A stretch of 64,000 bases of DNA. Origin: Felixounavirus LF110P2. A program made the translations under genes and the position numbers. The notes under the pieces are model-generated. The model was given only the letters and a program-made list of their open reading frames with translations. It made no database searches and was not told the origin of the DNA. The stretch is taken from the sequence record OZ035782.1; one strand, 5' to 3'. Positions 53,023 to 62,676 of the stretch are shown here, one piece after another. How positions within the stretch are numbered: position 1 is the stretch's first letter; each line of letters begins with the position of its first letter.

Positions 53023-53487
53023 TTACTTTGGGTATAAACTGTCAAGATAAATATCAGCTTCCATTCTACGTCTGTTTTTCAGTCCGTTTGAAGTGACTTT
53101 CTTACCTTTGACTGTAACCTTGTTCCACCACTGCATAGCTTCTGCACAACCTACCTTATCACCATCGTTGTGGCGCTTGATAAATGTGGAGTCCTGCATA
53201 GCTGTGATACCAATGTTGTATGTTTCACTTACAAGTGCGTCAAACTCATTCTGAGAAGTTGGAACCTTGACGGCTTTGTTCACTGCTGCAACGAACTTTT
53301 CAACATCTGCGAGAAGATACTGTTCAGCTTGTTCAGCGGTAATCTTCATACCCATCTTAACAGGTTTACCAGCAATACGGATTGTCCCATACCCAATTGT
53401 GGGGATTCCAGCAGAATCTTCGTAAGCCTCTAGCTTAAGACCTTCAAAGAACTTAATAGCGTCTAAACCTTTTCTTGAGAGTTGCAT
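53023..53487 (-). CDS. endolysin, GH24 lysozyme
   Basis: N-terminal KFFEGLKLEAYEDSAGIPTIGYG (EG...Y.D..G..TIGYG catalytic region) typical of T4 e / lambda R-type lysozymes. Confidence 0.8.
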   Translation of the reverse strand: MQLSRKGLDAIKFFEGLKLEAYEDSAGIPTIGYGTIRIAGKPVKMGMKITAEQAEQYLLADVEKFVAAVNKAVKVPTSQNEFDALVSETYNIGITAMQDSTFIKRHNDGDKVGCAEAMQWWNKVTVKGKKVTSNGLKNRRRMEADIYLDSLYPK

Positions 53488-54620
53488 TATGCCTCCCCTG
53501 CTGGATTAACTGTAACTGTTGCTGCATTAGATGTTACAGAGCCACCTGCGCCAGTAACTACACAGGTGTAGCTTCCTGCATCAGCAGCGGTTGCTCCTTC
53601 TTTGGTGTAGGTTGCAGTAGTTGCATCGAGGATGTCTTCCTCATCTTTCTTCCACTGATAACCTGTTGCACCTGTTGCCACAACATTCAACGTTAAGGTC
53701 TCACCTTCATTGATTTCTTGATTGGTTGGCTGTTGAGTGATGACAGGAAGTGCATTCACAGTAACTGTTGCAGGGCTAGAAGTAACAGAACCACCTGCAC
53801 CTGTTACAACGCAAGTGTATGAACCTGCATCTGCTGGCAGAGCACCAGACTTACTATAGGTTGCATCTGTAGCCGAAGGAATGTCAGAGCCATCTTTCTT
53901 CCACTGATAACCTGTTGCACCTGTTGCAGTCACTTCCAAGTTGATGTTTCCACCCTCATTGATGGTCTGGCTAGAAGGTTGTTGTGTAATCACAGGTAGT
54001 GCGTTCACAGTCACTGTTGCTGCATCTGAGGTAACACTTGTTCCACCCTCTCCAGATACAACACAAGTGTATGAACCAGCGTCAGAAGGTGCTACTGACT
54101 GTTTTGTGTAAGTTGCAGAATTGGCACTAGGGATGTCCTCACCATCCTTCTTCCACTGATATCCAGTGGCGTTAGTTGCTAGAATGTTTAGAGTAAGTGT
54201 GCCACCCTCATTGACTGTTTGACCTGTTGGTTGCTGAGTAATTGCTGGTGGCTTAATAGCATCCTTCAACTTAGCATTCAACATTGAGAACGGCTTAACT
54301 CTTGCCAACCATTCACAGTAAATTGTGTCAACATCTTTACCATTGATGATTGCATACTGCAAATCCATGAAGAAATCAGCAGTTCTCATCTGTGCACCAA
54401 CACTGTAAAGCAATTCATCACTAAATGGAACTTTGTAGTCTGGTTTGTAGTCAAACTTCTCAACTTCTGCAATATCAGCTTCAGGCCAATATGAACTATA
54501 GGTAAGTGGTAAAATAGCCTCTTGATATGTTCTAAAATCATATCTCTTACCAGCCTTTACATTTGCAATGAAACCCTTCACAAACTCTTTGAAGTCTGGG
54601 TAAGTCTTTGCTTTAATCAT
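53487..54620 (-). CDS. protein with three tandem Ig-like repeats
   Basis: Three ~85-aa repeats (ITQQP..QT.NEGG...L.V.ATGATGYQWKKDG.DI.....ATY.K......DAGSYTCVV.G.GGS.TS..ATVTVNA); N-terminal domain paralogous to the next gene. Confidence 0.6.
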   Translation of the reverse strand: MIKAKTYPDFKEFVKGFIANVKAGKRYDFRTYQEAILPLTYSSYWPEADIAEVEKFDYKPDYKVPFSDELLYSVGAQMRTADFFMDLQYAIINGKDVDTIYCEWLARVKPFSMLNAKLKDAIKPPAITQQPTGQTVNEGGTLTLNILATNATGYQWKKDGEDIPSANSATYTKQSVAPSDAGSYTCVVSGEGGTSVTSDAATVTVNALPVITQQPSSQTINEGGNINLEVTATGATGYQWKKDGSDIPSATDATYSKSGALPADAGSYTCVVTGAGGSVTSSPATVTVNALPVITQQPTNQEINEGETLTLNVVATGATGYQWKKDEEDILDATTATYTKEGATAADAGSYTCVVTGAGGSVTSNAATVTVNPAGEA

Positions 54621-54988
54621 TTCTTTTTAGCCTCTAAATGTGCGTTTAGTCTAAAATAACCTTTGTGATGCGGAGATACATCACCAACAACAATACCTTT
54701 GACCTTATAACCTTTACCAATTACATACTGGATATCCATAAGGAATCTTCCAAGACCAACAATATGGAACATTGGATATAATAGATTCTCAGAATCTGGA
54801 ATATTGATTTCAGGTTTGTAGGTGCGTTGTTCGCTTGTTGGTGTAATATCTTCTTCAGGCCATTTACTGAGTCTCCATGTCAAAGGTGTTGGGATAACAT
54901 CATTAAGGTTGTACCTTTCACCATTTTGCACGGAATTGATATAGGATTGTAGGAAGCAATAAAAGTCTTTTGCACTCTTAGCCTTCAT
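54617..54988 (-). CDS. hypothetical protein, paralog of the N-terminal domain of the Ig-repeat protein
   Basis: MKAKSAKDFYCFLQSYINSVQNGERY vs MIKAKTYPDFKEFVKGFIANVKAGKRY. Confidence 0.5.
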   Translation of the reverse strand: MKAKSAKDFYCFLQSYINSVQNGERYNLNDVIPTPLTWRLSKWPEEDITPTSEQRTYKPEINIPDSENLLYPMFHIVGLGRFLMDIQYVIGKGYKVKGIVVGDVSPHHKGYFRLNAHLEAKKK

Positions 54989-56245: not shown

Positions 56246-56617
56246 ATGAAAAACAGAACAAACAAAGGCCAGTTTAAAAAAGGCCAGTCTGGAAACCCAT
56301 CTGGAAGACCAAAAGGCTCACGTAACAAAAGTTCACTCGTAAAAGCTCAACTGACCATTGATAATTCTGCTGAGTTTGCTGCAAAGTTGTTTGAAGCGAT
56401 TGTTACAAGGGACGCTGCTAAGCTTGCAGAGTTCGGTTTGACGACTGACGATGTAAACCTGAAGTCGATGATGGAAGCTGGTAAAACTATCATGACCCAC
56501 TCAGCAGGTGAGATGAAAGCGATTGCAGCAGACACTAAGAAGACCCCTGATAATGGTGGTCAACCTCAGACAGATAACAAACCAACGTTCTCTGCTGTAG
56601 CGACTCTCAAAAAATAA
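56246..56617 (+). CDS. hypothetical protein with Gly-rich basic N-terminus
   Basis: N-terminus KGQFKKGQSGNPSGRPKGSRNK, a motif common in phage proteins; function unknown. Confidence 0.5.
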   Translation: MKNRTNKGQFKKGQSGNPSGRPKGSRNKSSLVKAQLTIDNSAEFAAKLFEAIVTRDAAKLAEFGLTTDDVNLKSMMEAGKTIMTHSAGEMKAIAADTKKTPDNGGQPQTDNKPTFSAVATLKK

Positions 56618-56699
56618 TTTTAAAAGGTGTTGACAGACTCTACAAAGTTACTCTAAAGTCTGTCACATCAACAAACAAAATGAGAGAAGAGAGTAAAAT

Positions 56700-58115
56700 A
56701 TGAGCGAATTATTTAAACATGCGCACCTTCATGCAGGTCGAACTGAAAATGGTGCTGTAAACCATACTTCATCAATGTCTGCTCTTGTAGACTTTTACAA
56801 AGCTGCTGGTTCGAGCCGTAGCAATGTAGAAATCTTACCAGACCTGTTCTACAAAGCTTTGCGTGAGGATGTTGATGTTGCAGTTCGTATTTTGCTTCAC
56901 ATGCGAGATGTACGAGAAGGTATGGGTGAGCGTAAAGCCTTCAGAACTGTTTTGCTTCAAGCAATTGAAGATAAAGTTTTAGAGCCTACACAGGTTCTTC
57001 GCATTATGGATAAGATTGCAGAACTTGGTCGTTTTGATGACTTCAAAGTCTTCGTAGGTACTCGTTTCGAGACAGATGCCTTCAAACATTTAGAAGCAGC
57101 ATTACTAGACCCTGCAACAGCAGGTTTGGCAGCTAAGTGGTTACCACGAGTCAAACCACGTCATAAGCAGTTTGTAAAACGTTTCTGCAAGTTTGCCAAC
57201 TTGAGTGAGAAAGAGTACCGCACACTGTTGTCTGCACTATCTGATACAGTTGAGCAAAAAATCTCTGCTAATGAGTTTGGTAAGATTGACTACAGTAAGA
57301 TTCCTTCACTTGCTGCTGCACGTTACCAAAAACTGTTTAACCGTAAAGATGGAGAACGCTACAAAGCTTACATCGAGTCCTTATCAAAGGGTGAGACTAA
57401 GATTAATGCTGGTGCTGTTTACCCATACGATGTAATTAAATCTGTTAAGCATGGTAATGCAGATGTTGCTAATGAGCAGTGGAAAGCACTACCAAACTGG
57501 ATGGCAGAGGGTGAAAACATCTTGTGTATGTCTGATGTTTCAAGCTCAATGTCTTGGGTGAATTTTGGTTCAATTACTGCTCTTGATATTGGTGTTTCAC
57601 TTGCATTGTATGTAGCAGAACGTAATACAGGTTGCTTTAAGAATGAGTTGATGGTTTATTCAACAAACCCTCACTTCATCGAACTGAGTGGTGATTTACG
57701 AAACCGTCATCGTCAGGTGATGCGACACGTTGAATATGGCTCAACTAACTTACAAGCTGCTTTTGACCGTATTCTTGAGACAGGTAAAAGAAACAACTTG
57801 ACTCAGAAAGATATGCCAAGTAAGCTTATCATCTTCTCCGATATGGAGTTCAATCAGGTTGATGGAGCTAACGGTCGTACAAACTTTGAAGCAATTCAGA
57901 GTAAGTACAAAAAAGCTGGATACGAAATGCCACAACTGGTATTCTGGTACTTAGCAAACCGTAATGGCACTTGCGAAGTGTCTGTTAAGGATAACGGTGT
58001 AGCAATGGTATCAGGGTTCTCTCCAGCCACTTTAAAAGCTCTGCTTGGTGGTGAGAAGTTTGACCCAATCAGTGTAATGCTCAAAGCAGTAATGATTGAC
58101 CGTTATATCTGGTAA
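56700..58115 (+). CDS. vWA-domain protein (MIDAS motif); possible Ro60/TROVE-like protein
   Basis: C-terminal vWA signature: DVSSSMSW (DxSxS), GSTNLQAAFDRIL, IIFSDMEF; N-terminal 270 aa unassigned; Ro60-like call is inference from domain order and the adjacent tRNA-like RNAs. Confidence 0.5.
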   Translation: MSELFKHAHLHAGRTENGAVNHTSSMSALVDFYKAAGSSRSNVEILPDLFYKALREDVDVAVRILLHMRDVREGMGERKAFRTVLLQAIEDKVLEPTQVLRIMDKIAELGRFDDFKVFVGTRFETDAFKHLEAALLDPATAGLAAKWLPRVKPRHKQFVKRFCKFANLSEKEYRTLLSALSDTVEQKISANEFGKIDYSKIPSLAAARYQKLFNRKDGERYKAYIESLSKGETKINAGAVYPYDVIKSVKHGNADVANEQWKALPNWMAEGENILCMSDVSSSMSWVNFGSITALDIGVSLALYVAERNTGCFKNELMVYSTNPHFIELSGDLRNRHRQVMRHVEYGSTNLQAAFDRILETGKRNNLTQKDMPSKLIIFSDMEFNQVDGANGRTNFEAIQSKYKKAGYEMPQLVFWYLANRNGTCEVSVKDNGVAMVSGFSPATLKALLGGEKFDPISVMLKAVMIDRYIW

Positions 58116-58130
58116 AAAGTTTTAAAAAGG

Positions 58131-58165
58131 GTATTGACAATGTGTTTAATACCCTTTAATATGTT
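58131..58165 (+). promoter_or_regulatory. candidate sigma70 promoter upstream of the tRNA array
   Basis: TTGACA (58134-58139), 17-nt spacer, TAATAT; -35 sits inside a GGGTATT..AATACCC hairpin. Confidence 0.45.
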
Positions 58166-58280
58166 CTACATAGAAGCGAAATGAGAGCTTTTCTAAGATA
58201 CTGAAAAATATTTTAAAAAAGTTCTTGACAACCACTAAAAAATAATGTTAAAGTGGTTACATAGAGTTTGAAAAGTTTAT

Positions 58281-58357
58281 CTCTGTTTAGCTCAGCTTGG
58301 TAGAGCGTTCCGTTTGGGGCGGTAAGGCCGGAGGTTCAAGTCCTCCAACAGAGACCA
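58281..58357 (+). tRNA. tRNA-Pro (anticodon UGG)
   Basis: Cloverleaf by eye: acceptor CTCTGTT/AACAGAG, D-arm GCTC..GAGC, loop TTTGGGG, T-arm GGAGGTTCAAGTCCTCC, CCA encoded; one mismatch in anticodon stem. Confidence 0.6.
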
Positions 58358-58364
58358 AATTAAT

Positions 58365-58442
58365 GTTCCAGTAGACAAAATGGTATAGTCATCACTCTTT
58401 CAAAGTGGATATTTGAGGGTTCAAATCCCTTCTGGAACGCCA
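58365..58442 (+). tRNA. tRNA-Glu (anticodon UUC)
   Basis: Acceptor GTTCCAG/CTGGAAC, loop CTTTCAA, T-loop GGTTCAAATCC, CCA encoded. Confidence 0.6.
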
Positions 58443-58448
58443 GTTTTG

Positions 58449-58522
58449 ACAGAAGACCAATTACAGCAAACTTAATCTTATTCATCTGAAGGTAAATCGG
58501 ACAAAGAAGAGATTTGGTCTGG
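58449..58522 (+). ncRNA. conserved stem-closed element, copy A (candidate small RNA)
   Basis: ACAGAAGACCAATTACAGCAAA...TTGGTCTGG; 7-bp closing stem AGACCAA/TTGGTCT. Confidence 0.4.
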
Positions 58523-58533
58523 TCATTAAGAAT

Positions 58534-58610
58534 TGCGGGTATAGAGAAAGGGCGTCTCACATGTCTCATTAGCATGGTATCGGCAGGTTCGACTCCTGCA
58601 CCCGCCTCCA
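58534..58610 (+). tRNA. tRNA with CAU anticodon (Met/fMet/Ile2 unresolved)
   Basis: T-arm GCAGGTTCGACTCCTGC, 3' acceptor ACCCGCC + T + CCA; position 1:72 unpaired (U:C); loop CTCATTA. Confidence 0.5.
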
Positions 58611-58615
58611 AATTT

Positions 58616-58680
58616 ACAGAAGACCGTTTACAGCAATATTTATTAAATTTTTAGCGGAAAAATTGAAAGATACGGTCTGG
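58616..58680 (+). ncRNA. conserved stem-closed element, copy B
   Basis: ACAGAAGACCGTTTACAGCAA...ACGGTCTGG; closing stem AGACCGT/ACGGTCT (compensatory change relative to copy A). Confidence 0.4.
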
Positions 58681-58693
58681 TAATACTAAACAT

Positions 58694-58770
58694 GGTTAGG
58701 AAGCACATAAGGTATGTGCGGTCGCCTGTTAAGCGAATGGCACAGGGTTCGAATCCCTGACTAACCGCCA
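58694..58770 (+). tRNA. tRNA-Asn (anticodon GUU)
   Basis: D-arm GCAC..GTGC, loop CTGTTAA, T-arm CAGGGTTCGAATCCCTG, CCA encoded. Confidence 0.6.
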
Positions 58771-58839
58771 AATTTAGGAGAGAAGCGATTGCTCACCGAT
58801 TTGTAAGGTGCAAGTCCTTAGCCTGAATAGAAATTAAAT

Positions 58840-58927
58840 GTGTCGTTATCCCGTAGATGGTAGCGGTGGGGACTGTAAATCCCTTGTCATTGAGACTCGG
58901 TAGGTTCGACTCCTACACGGCACACCA
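58840..58927 (+). tRNA. tRNA-Tyr (anticodon GUA), long variable arm
   Basis: Anticodon stem-loop GGGGA-CTGTAAA-TCCCT, long variable arm, T-arm GTAGGTTCGACTCCTAC, CCA encoded; 88 nt. Confidence 0.6.
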
Positions 58928-58932
58928 ATAAA

Positions 58933-59010
58933 GGTTATGTAGTTTAATTTGGTTAAAATACTCCCCTGTCACGGGAGATGATGAGGGTTCAAATCCCTTC
59001 GTAACCGCCA
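58933..59010 (+). tRNA. tRNA-Asp (anticodon GUC)
   Basis: Acceptor GGTTATG/CGTAACC, anticodon stem-loop CTCCC-CTGTCAC-GGGAG, T-loop GGTTCAAATCC, CCA. Confidence 0.65.
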
Positions 59011-59071
59011 ATTTTGAGAGGGCTATTTAGCCCCTCCCTTAAAGGGTTCTTACGAGTATCCTTTAAAGGAG

Positions 59072-59148
59072 CAGAAGACCAAATACAGCAAGAATGTATG
59101 ATATTTTCAAGCCAATTCAATTTTGAAAAAATTTAAAACTTGGTCTGG
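59072..59148 (+). ncRNA. conserved stem-closed element, copy C
   Basis: GCAGAAGACCAAATACAGCAAG...TTGGTCTGG; closing stem AGACCAA/TTGGTCT. Confidence 0.4.
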
Positions 59149-59161
59149 CTCAAAAAATTTA

Positions 59162-59293
59162 CAGAAGACCGTTTACAGCAAAACTTAAACAATCTATTTC
59201 TCCGGTAAAGAAAAGGCGAAGGTTCGATTCCTTCACTCGGCAGATGTCGAGTTGGTGTAATGGTAGCACTTAAGATGATAAACAACGGTCTGG
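59162..59293 (+). ncRNA. conserved stem-closed element, copy D, enclosing a circularly permuted tRNA-like domain (YrlA/Y-RNA-like candidate)
   Basis: Closing stem AGACCGT (59166-59172)/ACGGTCT (59285-59291); inside, in order: T-arm GAAGG-TTCGATT-CCTTC (59218-59234), ACTCGGC (59235-59241), loop AGAT, GTCGAGT (59246-59252, pairs with ACTCGGC), D-arm GTGT-AATGGTA-GCAC (59255-59269). Confidence 0.45.
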
Positions 59294-59298
59294 TAATT

Positions 59299-59434
59299 AT
59301 CTTTGTAGATAAGTTATTAAGCTTACCTGTGAGTATGCGACCACAAAGGGTGAAAGGGTAAATTCTAGATTTAAACCCAAAAAGGCACATCGCTACAGAC
59401 CTTAAGCAAGTCTGGGTAGCTTATCTACAAAGAT
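59299..59434 (+). ncRNA. structured element closed by a perfect 15-bp inverted repeat (candidate small RNA)
   Basis: ATCTTTGTAGATAAG (59299-59313) pairs with CTTATCTACAAAGAT (59420-59434); encloses 106 nt with internal hairpins. Confidence 0.35.
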
Positions 59435-59442
59435 AATTTAAT

Positions 59443-59518
59443 GGAAGTGTAGCAGAATGGTGATGCGGCAGACTTTTAATCTGACAGGCGATGGGTTCGA
59501 ATCCCTCCACTTCTACCA
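59443..59518 (+). tRNA. tRNA-Lys (anticodon UUU)
   Basis: Acceptor GGAAGTG/CACTTCT, loop CTTTTAA, T-loop GGTTCGAATCC, CCA encoded. Confidence 0.6.
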
Positions 59519-59523
59519 AAAAT

Positions 59524-59600
59524 GGTTCAGTCGCAGATAAGGTAATGCAAGGGTCTCATAAACCCTATGAATGTGGGTTCGATTCCCATCTGAACCTCCA
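59524..59600 (+). tRNA. tRNA with CAU anticodon (Met/fMet/Ile2 unresolved)
   Basis: Acceptor GGTTCAG/CTGAACC, anticodon stem-loop AGGGT-CTCATAA-ACCCT, T-loop GGTTCGATTCC, CCA. Confidence 0.65.
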
Positions 59601-59601
59601 A

Positions 59602-59677
59602 GCTGGTATAGTTAAGAAGGTTATAACACTCCCCTGATAAGGGAACATCGGTGGTTCGATTCCACCTACCAGTACCA
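59602..59677 (+). tRNA. tRNA-Ile (anticodon GAU)
   Basis: D-arm GTTA..TAAC, loop CTGATAA, T-arm GGTGGTTCGATTCCACC, CCA. Confidence 0.65.
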
Positions 59678-59692
59678 ATCTCAATAAAGTTG

Positions 59693-59721
59693 TTGACACT
59701 GAGATGTGACTACTTTATAGT
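59693..59721 (+). promoter_or_regulatory. candidate internal sigma70 promoter within the tRNA array
   Basis: TTGACA (59693-59698), 17-nt spacer, TATAGT (59716-59721). Confidence 0.5.
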
Positions 59722-60014
59722 AACTAAAATACTTCATAATATGTATAATTCAAACACCAATACATGAGCGTTAGACGTAACACAATGTGGGGAAATTTGT
59801 TGTACATATTCTGAATAGTTTTCGTTGCGTAGCGTCTATTTTGCAAATTTAAAATAAATGCAAACGACAATGTTTTTCTGGCAGTAGCTTGATAGGCTAA
59901 ACACCAGTGAGGTCTTCCAATCCCTCATCAAAGAATTTGGCGTACTCGCCCACGGTATGATTAATAAGGTGGGCATCTTTAAGGGCTTTCTAAGAGAGTC
60001 TTTAAAGATTAATG

Positions 60015-60091
60015 CACCCTTAGTTCAATTGGATAGAGCAACGGTCTTCTAAATCGTTAGTTACAGGTTCGAATCCTGTAGGGTGTGCCAA
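60015..60091 (+). tRNA. tRNA-Arg (anticodon UCU)
   Basis: D-arm GTTC-AATTGGATA-GAGC, anticodon stem-loop ACGGT-CTTCTAA-ATCGT, T-arm ACAGGTTCGAATCCTGT, CCA. Confidence 0.65.
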
Positions 60092-60232
60092 TTAGTTAGC
60101 AGATTACTTAGACGACCTAAGCGGGTCTTCCTGTAGGGAGGTTGTCTGTATCTCATGTTTTCCAGAACATGTAAATAATCTGAGAAGGGGCTTTACAGTG
60201 TTGAGATAATACGGTAAGCTTCGAATTGTAGT

Positions 60233-60315
60233 GTGGGACGATGTTAAGACTCTAAGGCATGAGCAACGGCCTCCAAAACCGTTTCAAAGGGGTTCAACTC
60301 CTCCGTCCCATGCCA
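60233..60315 (+). tRNA. tRNA-like gene, Trp-type anticodon CCA, non-canonical (7 extra nt between acceptor and D-arm)
   Basis: 3' part canonical (loop CTCCAAA, 5-nt variable, T-loop TTCAACT, acceptor GTCCCAT+G+CCA), but the pairing 5' strand GTGGGAC lies 7 nt further upstream than a standard cloverleaf allows. Confidence 0.4.
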
Positions 60316-60328
60316 AAGTCTTATTAGG

Positions 60329-60416
60329 GGTAGGTAGCGGCTAATGGCAGCCAAACAGTCTTGAAAACTGTTGCCACTGTAGAGATACGGTGAGGGTTCG
60401 ACTCCTTTACTTACCG
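60329..60416 (+). tRNA. tRNA-Ser (anticodon UGA), long variable arm, CCA not encoded
   Basis: Anticodon stem-loop AACAGT-CTTGAAA-ACTGTT (like E. coli tRNA-Ser UGA), long variable arm, T-loop TTCGACT, acceptor GGTAGGT/ACTTACC + G, then CCT. Confidence 0.55.
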
Positions 60417-60673
60417 CCTAATAAGATTTAAAGCCAAGCTTCATTCGGATGTTGCTTTGGTATACCGCGTGTATTGTTGTACGCACTGATAAAGCACCTA
60501 GTAGGTGTCACGGAGAAGAGATAATATCAAGCTCTCCAAAGGTTCTAGTCACCGGATTAAACAAGACTATGCAAAGACCTTTTTAGGTCTTTTTAGAGGG
60601 CTTCTAAGGTTATTACAGCTTGTTGTGGAACCTTGTTGCTTAGGTTCTTAGAAGTTCTCTAAAAAGATTTAAT

Positions 60674-60751
60674 GGGAGATTGATGGTAATTGGTAAACCT
60701 ATCTCGCTTAGAACGAGATGTTTGAGGGTTCGAATCCCTTGTCTCCTACCA
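60674..60751 (+). tRNA. tRNA with Leu-type anticodon UAG, short variable arm
   Basis: Anticodon stem-loop ATCTCG-CTTAGAA-CGAGAT, T-arm GAGGGTTCGAATCCCTT, acceptor GGGAGAT/GTCTCCT, A73, CCA; variable region only 4 nt. Confidence 0.5.
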
Positions 60752-60758
60752 AATTAAT

Positions 60759-60834
60759 GCAGGTGTAGCAAAATGGTTATGCGGCTGACTCTTAATCAGT
60801 AAGACGATGGGTTCAATTCCCTCCACCTGTACCA
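60759..60834 (+). tRNA. tRNA-Lys (anticodon CUU)
   Basis: Paralog of tRNA-Lys(UUU) at 59443; loop CTCTTAA; T-loop GGTTCAATTCC; CCA. Confidence 0.6.
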
Positions 60835-60840
60835 AAAAAT

Positions 60841-60916
60841 GGGGTCATAGTTTATATGGTTAAAATTCGAGTTTTGCAAACTTGGGAACTGAGTTCAATT
60901 CTCAGTGACTCCACCA
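60841..60916 (+). tRNA. tRNA-Ala (anticodon UGC)
   Basis: Acceptor GGGGTCA/TGACTCC with G3:U70 wobble (Ala identity element); loop TTTGCAA; T-arm CTGAGTTCAATTCTCAG; CCA. Confidence 0.7.
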
Positions 60917-60922
60917 ATTAGT

Positions 60923-60997
60923 GCATCCATAGTTTAAACGGGAAAATTACAGTCTTCCAAACTGAGGTTGAGGGTTCGATTCCCTCTGGATGCTCCA
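60923..60997 (+). tRNA. tRNA-Gly (anticodon UCC)
   Basis: Acceptor GCATCCA/TGGATGC perfect; loop CTTCCAA; T-arm GAGGGTTCGATTCCCTC; CCA. Confidence 0.65.
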
Positions 60998-61003
60998 AAT
61001 AAT

Positions 61004-61079
61004 GCTCCTATCGTATAATTGGCTATTACGGTTGCCTTGTAAGCAACTTATCAGGGTTCGAATCCTTGTGGGAGCACCA
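61004..61079 (+). tRNA. tRNA-Thr (anticodon UGU)
   Basis: Anticodon stem-loop GTTGC-CTTGTAA-GCAAC perfect; T-loop GGTTCGAATCC; CCA. Confidence 0.7.
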
Positions 61080-61175
61080 ATTCAGAGGTCAAGTGAAAGA
61101 CCGCTTTGAGTCAACTGAAGACCGTAACAAATTCCACGGAGTTGAGTTAGCGGCACAACTTCAGACCTCTTTCAC

Positions 61176-61250
61176 ACTCGCTTAGTTTATATGGTAAAAC
61201 ACCACCCTTACAAGATGAAGAAAAAGGTTCAAGTCCTTTAGTGAGTACCA
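61176..61250 (+). tRNA. tRNA-like gene, Val-type anticodon UAC, weak anticodon stem (possible pseudo-tRNA)
   Basis: Good acceptor (ACTCGCT/AGTGAGT), D-arm GTTT..AAAC, T-arm AAAGGTTCAAGTCCTTT and CCA, but anticodon stem around CTTACAA pairs at only 3 of 5 positions. Confidence 0.4.
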
Positions 61251-61251
61251 T

Positions 61252-61329
61252 GTTCCAGTATCCCAATTGGCAGAGGATGCAAGCTCAAACCTTGTATTAG
61301 TGACGGTTCGAATCCGTCTTGGAACACCA
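61252..61329 (+). tRNA. tRNA with Leu-type anticodon CAA, short variable arm
   Basis: Leu-like D-loop (CCCAATTGGCAGAGG), anticodon stem-loop GCAAG-CTCAAAC-CTTGT, T-arm GACGGTTCGAATCCGTC, A73, CCA; variable region about 6 nt. Confidence 0.5.
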
Positions 61330-61334
61330 ATTTT

Positions 61335-61410
61335 GCAGGATTAGTTCAAATGGATAGAGCAACAGTCTACGAAACTGTTAATAGGGGTTCGAATCCCTTA
61401 TCCTGCGCCA
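61335..61410 (+). tRNA. tRNA-Arg (anticodon ACG)
   Basis: Acceptor GCAGGAT/ATCCTGC perfect; anticodon stem-loop ACAGT-CTACGAA-ACTGT perfect; T-loop GGTTCGAATCC; CCA. Confidence 0.75.
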
Positions 61411-61428
61411 GATAAGCAAGAGGAATTT

Positions 61429-61671
61429 ATGCAAACATTAATCGTCGTTGAACATGAAAATCCCAATAGTATTGAGTTTGTAAGGGTTCCCACTATAGAT
61501 ACCCACATTTTCTTAAAAGTCGGATGGGAATGCGACCCAATAAAAGTAGAAAGATTTATTGGTCATTGCTTTGGTGGAAGACAACTTAAAAGTGTCAATT
61601 TTGAGACAATGTTACCAGAAAGCTCAGAAACAAGTAATAATGCTTACCTCCTTACGAGGGTTAGACAATGA
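61429..61671 (+). CDS. hypothetical protein embedded in the tRNA array
   Basis: 80-aa ORF with ATG start directly after tRNA-Arg(ACG). Confidence 0.4.
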   Translation: MQTLIVVEHENPNSIEFVRVPTIDTHIFLKVGWECDPIKVERFIGHCFGGRQLKSVNFETMLPESSETSNNAYLLTRVRQ

Positions 61672-62225
61672 GATACTTAAAATATGCTTCATGGATTTTC
61701 TTAGCTTTGCTAGAACCACTTGCAGCAATACTAGCAGTTATCTTAGCACCTTTCGTAGTTCCATTCTACAGTGAGAAGAAAGGACATCTACCTTTCGGAT
61801 TTAGATGGATGGAAACTTATGACAACCCAATTGATGGTGATGAAGGTCACGTTAAAAGATGGGCTAATATTAGATGGATTGGTAAGCTTGGTGTCTATAT
61901 GCAGAGAGTCGGTTGGCTCTGGAGAAACAAAGCTTATAACTTCTCTTACCATGTGTTAGGAAGAGATGTAAAAGATGTTACTAAGTGGAAAGGTAATATC
62001 AACGTAAGTTCTAACCCTGAAGATAATCAGACAGGTTATCTCCTAATGTGGAACAGTAATTCTTGGGGATTATTCGCTTTTATCCCATCAATTAAAGTCT
62101 TTGGTAAACAGTTTTACTGGAGAATTTATGTTGGATGGAAACTTAAAAGTGTTGTCCCAGAAGAAAGAGCATTCTCAAGGGAAAGAGTTATGTTGGCATT
62201 CTTTATTCATCCACTGAGAAAGTAA
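61668..62225 (+). CDS. hypothetical protein (Trp-rich) embedded in the tRNA array
   Basis: 185-aa ORF with hydrophobic N-terminus; ATG 61668 overlaps the previous stop. Confidence 0.45.
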   Translation: MRYLKYASWIFLALLEPLAAILAVILAPFVVPFYSEKKGHLPFGFRWMETYDNPIDGDEGHVKRWANIRWIGKLGVYMQRVGWLWRNKAYNFSYHVLGRDVKDVTKWKGNINVSSNPEDNQTGYLLMWNSNSWGLFAFIPSIKVFGKQFYWRIYVGWKLKSVVPEERAFSRERVMLAFFIHPLRK

Positions 62226-62233
62226 AGATTTAA

Positions 62234-62309
62234 AGGGGATTAGTTTACAAGGTTAAAACCTCGGTCTTTGAAATCGAAGAAGTTGGTTCAATTCCAACAT
62301 CCCCCGCCA
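62234..62309 (+). tRNA. tRNA-Gln (anticodon UUG)
   Basis: D-arm GTTT..AAAC; anticodon stem-loop TCGGT-CTTTGAA-ATCGA; T-arm GTTGGTTCAATTCCAAC; CCA; coordinates anchored to flanking ORF stop/start. Confidence 0.6.
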
Positions 62310-62311
62310 AT

Positions 62312-62390
62312 GCTCCATTACTCCAATTGGCAGAGAGGCCAGACTTAAAATCTGTGTTATGTATCGGTTCGAATCCGATATGGAGTACCA
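62312..62390 (+). tRNA. tRNA with Leu-type anticodon UAA, short variable arm
   Basis: Leu-like D-loop (CCAATTGGCAGAGAGG); loop CTTAAAA; T-arm ATCGGTTCGAATCCGAT; A73; CCA; variable region about 7 nt. Confidence 0.5.
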
Positions 62391-62395
62391 AATTT

Positions 62396-62471
62396 AGCGG
62401 TATAGCATAACTGGCAATGCAGCAGTCTCTGAAGCTGTCTTATTAAGGTTCAAATCCTTATGCCGCTGCCA
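62396..62471 (+). tRNA. tRNA-Gln (anticodon CUG)
   Basis: Anticodon stem-loop GCAGT-CTCTGAA-GCTGT; T-arm TAAGGTTCAAATCCTTA; CCA. Confidence 0.6.
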
Positions 62472-62502
62472 CTTCTAAGGGTTCTTACGAGAGTCCTTAA
62501 AT

Positions 62503-62578
62503 GTGGCCTTATCATAAATGGTAATGACCCATGCTGTGAACATGGTCTATACGGGTTCAAATCCCGTAGGTCACCCCA
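62503..62578 (+). tRNA. tRNA-His (anticodon GUG)
   Basis: Anticodon stem-loop CCATG-CTGTGAA-CATGG perfect; T-arm ACGGGTTCAAATCCCGT; discriminator C73 + CCA; no encoded G-1 (preceding base is T). Confidence 0.65.
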
Positions 62579-62584
62579 ATTTAT

Positions 62585-62660
62585 AGTCCAAGTAGCTTAT
62601 ATGGTTAAAGCGCGTGTCTGAAAAACATGAGAAGAGGGTTCAAATCCCACTGGACTACCA
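62585..62660 (+). tRNA. tRNA-Phe (anticodon GAA)
   Basis: D-arm GCTT..AAGC; anticodon stem-loop CGTGT-CTGAAAA-ACATG; T-loop GGTTCAAATCC; CCA; one acceptor mismatch. Confidence 0.55.
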
Positions 62661-62676
62661 ATTTCAAAGGTGCTTA

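Follow-up and report, generated by a model that had tools for sequence, protein, structure and literature searches.

Gene and RNA elements at the locus

We analysed a stretch of 64,000 nucleotides from Felixounavirus LF110P2 (sequence record OZ035782.1; hereafter the window), in which an open reading frame (ORF) with an ATG start, coding for a predicted Ro60-like protein of 471 amino acids (aa), lies in front of an array of tRNA genes. Four small RNA elements, named E1 to E4, are embedded in this array, all on the + strand and 335-1,179 nt downstream of the gene. Here we document a resemblance between the predicted fold of the protein and that of Ro60, the RNA family to which the four elements belong, the covariation within this family, and its tight genomic linkage to the gene. 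The features concerned are:

56700..58115, + strand: Ro60-like protein gene, 471 aa; Pfam DUF2828 and DUF7788; PHROG 850 'RNA-binding protein'
56700..57503, + strand: N-terminal all-helical module, residues 1-268, DUF2828; HEAT-like repeats
57519..58064, + strand: von Willebrand A (vWA)-like domain, residues 274-455, DUF7788; aligns with the Ro60 vWA domain and the helix preceding it
57534..57548, + strand: DxSxS motif (D279-V-S281-S-S283) of the metal-ion-dependent adhesion site (MIDAS); T349 and D381 complete the motif
58281..63585, + strand: array of 26 tRNA genes embedding the four RNA elements
58450..58524, + strand: short RNA E1; stem AGACCAA/UUGGUCU; UACAGCAA at 58462-58469; 41.3 bits
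58617..58682, + strand: short RNA E2; stem AGACCGU/ACGGUCU; UACAGCAA at 58629-58636; 47.6 bits
59072..59150, + strand: short RNA E3; UACAGCAA at 59084-59091; 39.1 bits
59161..59294, + strand: long RNA E4, YrlA-like; closing stem AGACCGUU/AACGGUCU; UACAGCAA at 59174-59181
Within E4, + strand: 5' hairpin 59197-59213; T arm 59218-59234; acceptor-like hairpin 59235-59252; D arm 59255-59269

The protein and its predicted structure

RNA surveillance by Ro60-Y RNA particles is conserved, and these particles are also a major autoantigen in humans. Their bacterial and phage versions have so far been linked to a single protein family (TROVE) and a single RNA family (YrlA/YrlB).

We found that the 471-aa protein is a clear member of DUF2828/DUF7788 and of PHROG 850, with both Pfam scores above their curated cut-offs and a full-length PHROG match. 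Its N-terminal part matched DUF2828 (E 1.5e-29; 103.6 bits against a curated cut-off of 29), residues 274-455 matched the vWA-like DUF7788 (E 1.7e-43; 148.9 bits against a curated cut-off of 27.1) and residues 1-471 matched positions 1-476 of the PHROG 850 profile (E 9e-184). When 43 family members with identity down to 40% were aligned, the MIDAS residues D279, S281, S283, T349 and D381 were invariant. The N-terminal module is rich in invariant arginine and lysine (R40, R69, R72, R78, R111, K146 and R208). The original prediction, which was made from the letters alone, had described a 471-aa ORF at these coordinates ending in a vWA domain with a MIDAS motif; this is what we found, and the three peptides it quoted lie at residues 279-286 (DVSSSMSW), 347-359 (GSTNLQAAFDRIL) and 377-384 (IIFSDMEF). 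It had also named DUF2828 as a possible outcome of a domain search, which turned out to be the actual Pfam assignment.

With a threshold of E ≤ 1e-3, an exhaustive profile search returned 8,901 clusters at 50% identity; 4,080 reached E ≤ 1e-30, and both domains were present in every relative listed. Hosts of the DUF2828/DUF7788 family include enterobacterial, vibrio, marine and gut phages, and DUF2828 occurs in eukaryotes too. A tested segment of 3.5 kb was 100% identical to Felixounavirus LF110P2, a Felix O1-like myovirus. The gene region itself is conserved in 299 phage records, and Felixounavirus genomes label the gene product 'RNA-binding protein', 'vWFA protein' or 'hypothetical protein'. 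The family is thus very large, mostly phage-borne and, judged by sequence, distinct from Ro60/Rsr (TROVE); its Pfam and PHROG 850 entries come without a described RNA partner or mechanism.

The AlphaFold2 model of the protein had a predicted local distance difference test score (pLDDT) of 88.8 and a predicted template modelling score (pTM) of 0.88. Comparison of such a model with Ro60 structures had been suggested in the original prediction and gave a clear outcome: the top 12 Foldseek matches in the PDB were all Ro60/TROVE structures, matched over the full length (E 1e-8 to 1e-6; TMq 0.35-0.66, or 0.49-0.66 without Deinococcus Rsr), and the matches that followed were vWA-only with E > 2e-3. 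As in the Ro60 fold, the predicted model has a HEAT-repeat module packed on the vWA domain. We compiled a TROVE profile of 42 sequences comprising human RO60 (1224 bits against 9nen), Xenopus Ro60 and phage and bacterial proteins. Using hhalign against it, we found that residues 232-444 align with Ro60 313-539 (E 1.5e-5), with the MIDAS in register with Ro60 DVSGSM, GGTDC and TDNET. This stretch spans the last helix of the TROVE module ('RIHP' versus 'VYPYD') plus the vWA domain, and with both the 42-sequence profile and one of 5 sequences only the C-terminal half was aligned. Pfam vWA_Ro60 (PF25045) was matched weakly by 9 of the 43 members.

A generic vWA/MIDAS protein, such as a MoxR-type co-chaperone or a TerY-like protein, would have an N-terminus unrelated to RNA, and its RNA neighbours would be a coincidence. 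The generic VWA_2 model was matched by 24/43 members and VWA_CoxE by 11/43, and the N-terminal module modelled alone was indistinguishable from other HEAT proteins, all of which is in keeping with this explanation; the best full-length matches of the model are to Ro60/TROVE, and we consider a generic vWA protein barely credible.

RNA elements in the window

Four copies of the motif AGAAGACC-NNW-TACAGCAA were found in the window against 0.04 expected, all of them in spacers of the tRNA array. Downstream of each copy, at a distance of 50-110 nt, is a GGUCUGG that pairs with AGACC, and two stem positions beside the AGACC core covary between the copies (GU...AC versus AA...UU). The spacer between tRNA-Glu and tRNA-Met is almost exactly filled by E1, and that between tRNA-Met and tRNA-Asn likewise by E2; tRNA-processing enzymes could therefore release both elements.

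The unconstrained minimum free energy fold of E4 contains five helices: the closing stem, the 5' hairpin, a T arm (GAAGG-UUCGAUU-CCUUC), a 7-bp hairpin (ACUCGGC-agau-GUCGAGU) which joins the would-be 3' and 5' acceptor strands, and a D arm (GUGU-AAUGGUA-GCAC). The same five helices were predicted by RNAalifold from 13 distinct Felixounavirus variants. Among these variants the T and D arms are invariant and the acceptor-like hairpin occurs as three unrelated sequences, all of which pair, giving 3 compensatory pairs and 97% of cells paired versus approximately 47% when the partners are slid.

One further segment of the array is worthy of mention. The spacer between tRNA-Asn and tRNA-Tyr (58771-58839, +) holds a T-arm-like hairpin (AAGG-UGCAAGU-CCUU) within a UAGG...CCUG closing stem, these being termini typical of the RNA family in other phages, and lacks UACAGCAA; it may be a degenerate fifth copy.

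An RNA family linked to the gene across related loci

We searched for similar elements in two sets of related loci: 75 diverged relatives on viral contigs, with 39-48% protein identity and flanks of up to 10 kb (the viral set), and 80 loci from bacterial and archaeal assemblies, with 33-42% identity, none of which were used for training (the genome set). Within the viral set TACAGCAA occurred 95 times on the gene strand and 26 times on the other strand, with 19.6 expected, and many copies of the motif begin 35-45 nt after the stop codon. When we also required a closing stem (6 bp or longer) whose end lies 0-2 nt ahead of the motif, 32/75 loci had an element within 1 kb of the gene; 60 composition-matched permuted 8-mers gave a mean of 0.2 loci and a maximum of 2. 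The loci which at first seemed empty contained the variants UUCAGCAA, UUCCGCAA and UUGCAGCA. A degenerate motif, U[AUG]C[ACG]GCAA with a stem of at least 7 bp, was found 107 times on the gene strand versus 13 times on the other, and within 1 kb of the gene in 47/75 loci (controls: mean 0.4, maximum 2). With all methods combined, the element was found in 61 of the 75 viral loci.

The consensus of the element is A-[AGGNNNN]-N-UACAGCAA-(A/U-rich, 30-150 nt)-[NNNNCCU]-G. In length the short forms range from 43 to 80 nt; they have a terminal stem of 7-8 bp, the motif directly after the 5' stem strand and a variable interior. There are up to 4-7 copies per locus, some of them kilobases away from the gene or separated from it by tRNAs.

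We built a covariance model, R1, from 26 short elements; its calibration was short, so that its E-values are rough. Searching both strands of 1.39 Mb gave 62 matches at E ≤ 0.01, all 62 of which were on the gene strand. Within the window R1 matched E1-E3 only, with the bit scores listed above. The stem covaries in the viral set: 7/7 stem pairs showed compensatory changes, 95.6% of cells were paired versus 62% after shuffling and at most 48.5% when the stem was slid, and double changes were seen in 143 cells versus 46.5 ± 5.6; these counts are inflated, as the alignment was fitted to the structure. The genome set gave 32 R1 matches at E ≤ 0.05, again all on the gene strand (32/32) and adjoining the gene, mostly 50-400 nt upstream of it; here 97.7% of cells were paired and 7/7 stem pairs were compensatory. 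A census of motif plus stem in the genome set counted 66 versus 21 by strand and 31/80 loci within 1 kb, with a control mean of 2.2. No Rfam 15 family covers this stem + UACAGCAA RNA, which is a new structured RNA family with strong covariation support.

The position of many copies, 35-45 nt past the stop codon or 50-400 nt before the start, means that they could be part of the mRNA, and the elements could then be cis-acting transcript signals (processing sites, stabilisers, attenuators or an autoregulatory site) rather than free small RNAs of a ribonucleoprotein (RNP); in that case they might or might not be contacted by the protein. In the window, TTGACA/TTTACA stands in front of three copies, and a weak promoter-like site overlaps with one, which fits such a role. 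However, the -35-like hexamer is missing at E3 and in the elements of other lineages, there are multiple copies per locus, some of them kilobases off or beyond tRNAs, and a processing signal would have no need of the complete tRNA-like modules of the long forms. The elements also resemble Dictyostelium Class I RNAs, which are free and cytoplasmic, in size, termini and motif (PMC7919456). We therefore regard cis-acting signals as rather unlikely. On the same distribution of hexamers, the motif was rejected as a promoter.

Long forms and the comparison with YrlA

In YrlA RNAs the T and D stem-loops are near-invariant, with a structurally preserved AS hairpin between them (Chen et al., PMC4201824). 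A strict T-AS-D descriptor missed known YrlAs in 3/4 canonical Ro60 loci; it was calibrated with Rfam and then relaxed. The relaxed descriptor (T arm, 6-7-bp hairpin, D arm) found 20 modules on the gene strand and 0 on the opposite strand, and 14 of these 20 permuted modules, in 13 loci, were free of overlap with real tRNAs. Wherever they were inspected, the long-form modules were enclosed by the stem and motif. The tRNA-like module of these long forms is circularly permuted, running from the T arm through a closed 'acceptor' hairpin to the D arm, and has the topology of bacterial YrlA. E4 follows this pattern, with T and D stem-loops, a variable hairpin and a position on the same strand as the gene and within approximately 4 kb of it.

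At one viral locus, L027, the Rfam YrlA model matched two long forms, with 38.0 bits (E 8e-5) and 34.8 bits (full model, 1-114). These scores do not reach the Rfam gathering score of 69 bits (RF02553) and are in the range of the YrlAs beside canonical phage Ro60 genes, which score 27-37 bits with RF02553. Within the window, Rfam reported no Y RNA or YrlA at the gathering score, at E ≤ 5 or at E ≤ 10. By its sequence E4 is not a curated YrlA family member.

The canonical Ro60 genes of phages are a set apart, with 358 records of which nearly all come from actinophages and none are enterobacterial. Of four such genes inspected, three lie within a few kb of co-directional tRNAs. The canonical phage loci carry GNCGAANG, and R1 had 0 matches in the four canonical Ro60 loci searched. 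In Streptomyces phage StarPlatinum (L084 3366-3590) we observed two tandem candidate Y RNAs with GNCGAANG motifs (GGGUCGAAUG and GGCCGAAUG) and T arms; they sit between tRNA-Asp and the canonical Ro-like gene, and Rfam YrlA did not report them at E ≤ 0.1.

It could be argued that we are dealing with a genuine ortholog of Ro60/Rsr and with canonical Y RNAs of the YrlA/YrlB type: the overall architecture is shared, Ro60 structures are the best structural matches and the tRNA-like RNA has the YrlA topology. Set against this are the missing TROVE match, the failure of Rfam YrlA to find E4, the absence of GNCGAAN0-1G, the separate set of canonical genes and the lack of the UACAGCAA RNA from the canonical loci. 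At the level of sequence these tests already contradict true orthology, which we judge to be very improbable.

Association with tRNA genes

tRNA genes were present in the flanks of 35/75 viral loci, all 362 of them on the gene strand; the closest one was usually downstream of the gene, and in 22 loci it was within 1 kb. In the genome set 107/109 tRNAs were co-directional with the gene. Together with tmRNA genes nearby in three loci and the binding of misfolded small RNAs by Ro60 (PMC4201824), this association would suit a protein which acts on phage tRNAs or pre-tRNAs as a chaperone, in quality control or as a shield against anticodon nucleases, with the tRNA-like elements as regulators or decoys. 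However, only 10/78 elements abut a tRNA, and co-directionality is partly a property of phage gene blocks. Moreover, 22 viral loci have the RNA element but lack tRNAs in their flanks (up to 10 kb); tRNAs in cis are therefore dispensable. We find this role quite unlikely and rejected tRNAs as the primary partner: their association with the gene is strong but weaker than that of the RNA element. The closest genomic partner of the gene is the stem + UACAGCAA RNA family, not tRNAs.

The three tmRNA genes scored above Rfam gathering (L063 12619-13092, L055 17243-17606 and L027 8605-9054). They lie 1.2-5.8 kb downstream of the DUF2828 gene and on its strand, in phage contigs that are unrelated to one another; two of these contigs lack tRNAs in the flanks. 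The window has a weak tmRNA-like match (59824-60013, 15.9 bits).

Interpretation

Taken together, these results are best explained by a Ro60-like protein of the DUF2828/DUF7788 family with the adjacent stem + motif RNAs as its partners, which would make up a second Ro60/Y-RNA-like system; we put the probability of this at about 0.68. On this explanation, the system is one that works like Ro60-Y RNA yet fails sequence-level membership of TROVE and YrlA.

The original prediction had proposed a phage Ro60 ortholog next to a cluster of tRNAs and Y-RNA-like elements. The setting was described correctly: the gene directly precedes the tRNA cluster, with 165 nt from its stop codon to the first of the 26 tRNA genes, and Y-RNA-like elements follow shortly after the gene on its strand, E4 among them being a tRNA mimic. 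As for the Ro60 identity, the architecture and the best full-length structural matches speak for it; the search for TROVE that had been proposed gave no hit, and the partner RNAs fall outside the curated YrlA family.

Several observations weigh against the explanation of a second Ro60/Y-RNA-like system. On the side of the protein, none of the 43 members matched TROVE (PF05731) at E ≤ 10, and searches of PDB chains with the single protein (phmmer) or the family profile (hmmsearch) recovered no Ro60. When the N-terminal halves alone were compared by hhalign, E was 0.24 over 26 columns. The protein structure is a prediction, and its ring shape is putative. It should be noted that human RO60 does not find the accepted Ro60 of phage phiLo by phmmer, so that a missing sequence signal is not unusual in this superfamily. 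On the side of the RNA, the element was not found in 14/75 viral loci, many of which have incomplete flanks, and 23 of the 62 R1 matches are training sequences. Alignments A7 and A8 were fitted to the structure of the model, which inflates their pair counts; one permuted control motif reached 21 loci in the genome set; and all counts overstate the number of independent events because the loci are related by descent. Thermodynamic z-scores of E1-E4 are weak (-0.7 to -2.2), which also suits cis-acting signals. RF02553 found no match to E4 even at E ≤ 10 (181 nt), and GNCGAAN0-1G is absent from E4, the 5' region of which reads ACAGAAGACCGUUUACAGCAA and the conserved motif of which is UACAGCAA.

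Promoter-like sites and neighbouring genes

Around the gene we noted the following candidate transcription signals:

56630..56659, + strand: sigma-70-like promoter TTGACA-18-TAAAGT, 41 nt upstream of the gene; consensus match only
58126..58254, + strand: post-gene spacer with a 12-bp hairpin (58126-58157) and promoter-like sites at 58134-58162 and 58225-58254

The number of promoter-like sites in the region was not above that in shuffled sequences. Both sites of the spacer face the RNA/tRNA array, and the first overlaps the 12-bp hairpin, which is also terminator-like by score. The promoter-like sites (TTGACA-17/18-TAAAGT/TAATAT) each lie within an inverted repeat of 7-12 bp (56629-56668, 58126-58162 and 58225-58262, +); in read-through transcripts the promoter region would therefore fold into a hairpin.

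No neighbouring protein family was found in more than 15/75 viral loci, and a conserved protein partner (RtcB, RNA ligase, polynucleotide kinase (PNK) or MoxR) was rejected on these grounds; RtcB, RNA ligase and PNK were not among the top neighbour clusters of the 75 viral loci. The neighbours in the window are DUF5681, DUF7338, DUF7217 and tail/Ig-like proteins. Directly upstream of the gene (56246-56617, +) is a DUF5681 protein with a GNPxGRPKG motif (Pfam E 7e-14), which has its own strong promoter-like sites at approximately 56098 and is not a conserved neighbour in other lineages. On the opposite strand are a tail/Hoc-like protein with three tandem Ig-like domains (53487-54620, -) and a 123-aa paralog of its N-terminal region (54617-54988, -; PHROG 3995 / 4463). 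The genes for DUF7338, likely a membrane protein, and DUF7217 (61668-62225 and 62614-63411, +) are interleaved with the tRNA genes; the start of DUF7217 is probably further downstream, because the listed ORF overlaps tRNA-Phe at its 5' end.

Two strong hairpins, both without the UACAGCAA motif, were found within the array. The first (59293-59440, +) is a 24-bp stem around approximately 100 nt which ends 2 nt before tRNA-Lys (-48.3 kcal/mol, z -6.3), and the second (60580-60674, +) is a stem of approximately 30 bp, with 26-nt arms that are 85% complementary, which ends just before tRNA-Leu (-37.6 kcal/mol, z -7.7). They could be RNase III-type processing sites or other non-coding RNAs. There is also a tRNA-like element at 60235-60309 (+), a paralog of tRNA-Arg(tct) with a weak match to Rfam tRNA-Sec (23 bits). 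This can be read as tRNA-Trp(CCA), Trp being the sole amino acid missing from the 26 tRNAs; the assignment was not confirmed, as ARAGORN misses the element by default and reports an undetermined tRNA with a 4-base anticodon when relaxed.

Proposed mechanism

The protein, in which a HEAT-like N-terminal module is predicted to pack on a C-terminal vWA domain whose metal-binding MIDAS is intact, would be made from its own promoter-like site at 56630. Transcription of the RNAs would run along with the tRNA array from the promoter-like sites at 58134 and 58225 (consensus matches only), and in Felixounavirus part of the RNAs would be released by tRNA processing. The ends of each partner RNA pair in a stem of 7-8 bp, with single-stranded UACAGCAA following the 5' strand. 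By analogy we infer direct protein-RNA binding and a downstream effector: the protein would bind the stem + UACAGCAA module, and the other module, variable or tRNA-like, would act as a recruiter or decoy of host enzymes that recognise tRNA or take part in RNA decay, such as polynucleotide phosphorylase (PNPase), RNase P or tRNA-modifying enzymes. This mechanism is modelled on RYPER and on the Ro60 of the Thermus phage phiLo, which binds phage-encoded Yrl RNAs and attenuates host PNPase (PMC12135203). During infection the phage may thereby govern the quality or decay of RNA, or weaken host defences that target RNA.

If this is correct, the locus points to a second, much larger, phage-borne Ro60-like family with its own uncatalogued RNA, including tRNA-mimic modules. 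It would give a testable function to two Pfam domains of unknown function and to a gene of hundreds of Felix O1-like phages, therapeutic candidates included, and RNA elements would explain the non-tRNA spacers of phage tRNA arrays. It would also provide a concrete and checkable hypothesis for the orphan Class I RNAs of Dictyostelium.

Comparison with known systems

The likeness to Ro60/Rsr lies in the helical module and MIDAS vWA domain found in both, with Ro60 giving the best full-length structural matches to the predicted model, and in the partner RNA genes, which in both are adjacent and co-directional; Y RNAs are encoded on the same strand as Ro60 and within 4 kb of it (PMC4201824). As in Y RNAs, the RNA ends are paired, a conserved motif lies on the 5' side and there are short and long forms, and the long forms of locus L027 score in the range of the YrlAs beside canonical phage Ro60 genes. 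The systems differ in that the window protein belongs to DUF2828/DUF7788 and not to TROVE/vWA_Ro60, its N-terminal half has no detectable sequence similarity to Ro60, and the window RNAs carry UACAGCAA where YrlA has GNCGAAN0-1G. They also differ in hosts, canonical phage Ro60 being almost confined to actinophages and the DUF2828 family being broader.

The Class I RNAs of Dictyostelium are abundant and developmentally important, with an unexplained mechanism, and we know of no Ro60-like partner for them. They are 42-65 nt long, with a terminal stem showing compensatory changes, a 5' G, a 3' CUGU, a variable interior and an 11-nt motif, CCUUACAGCAA, beside the 5' stem strand, and are thought to be unique to Dictyostelia (PMC7919456). 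The phage short forms are alike in their length of approximately 60 nt, low GC content, terminal stem starting with G, A/U-rich interior and 3' C-UG. The motif also follows the 5' stem strand in both (CCUUACAGCAA in Class I versus (C)UUACAGCAA in phages): the phage motif matches 8-10 of the 11 Class I positions, in the same place and between G...C-UG termini, and its variable positions are those reported to be variable in Dictyostelia. Rfam RF01414 aligned phage elements end to end with 19.7-30.8 bits, the short forms of L027 scoring 30.8 and 27.9 bits, and with single-hit E-values of 0.07 to approximately 1. Because all of these Rfam scores are below the gathering score of 41.5, the likeness is a resemblance and not a demonstrated homology; the phage elements also differ in having no DUSE promoter and in coming from entirely different organisms.

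The known direct binder of Class I RNAs is Rnp1A, an RNA recognition motif protein (PMC7919456). A pull-down with DdR-21 recovered GuaB, NdkC, Rnp1A and DDB_G0281243, the last being a protein of unknown function conserved in Dictyostelia (bioRxiv 10.1101/2020.04.05.026054) and not mentioned in the supplements of PMC7919456. Full-text literature searches for DUF2828, its older InterPro name UCP015417, the motif UACAGCAA and DDB_G0281243 returned nothing relevant, and the mentions of DUF2828/UCP015417 in the literature searched were plant gene lists and one tardigrade genome study. We suggest tentatively, as a possible though rather doubtful idea, that the phage stem + UACAGCAA RNAs and the Class I RNAs are of the same kind and are ligands of DUF2828/DUF7788 Ro60-like proteins. 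If it is true that DDB_G0281243 or another dictyostelid protein is a DUF2828 protein, the Class I RNAs would play the part of 'Y RNAs' in a second family of Ro60-like RNPs, common to phages and eukaryotes.

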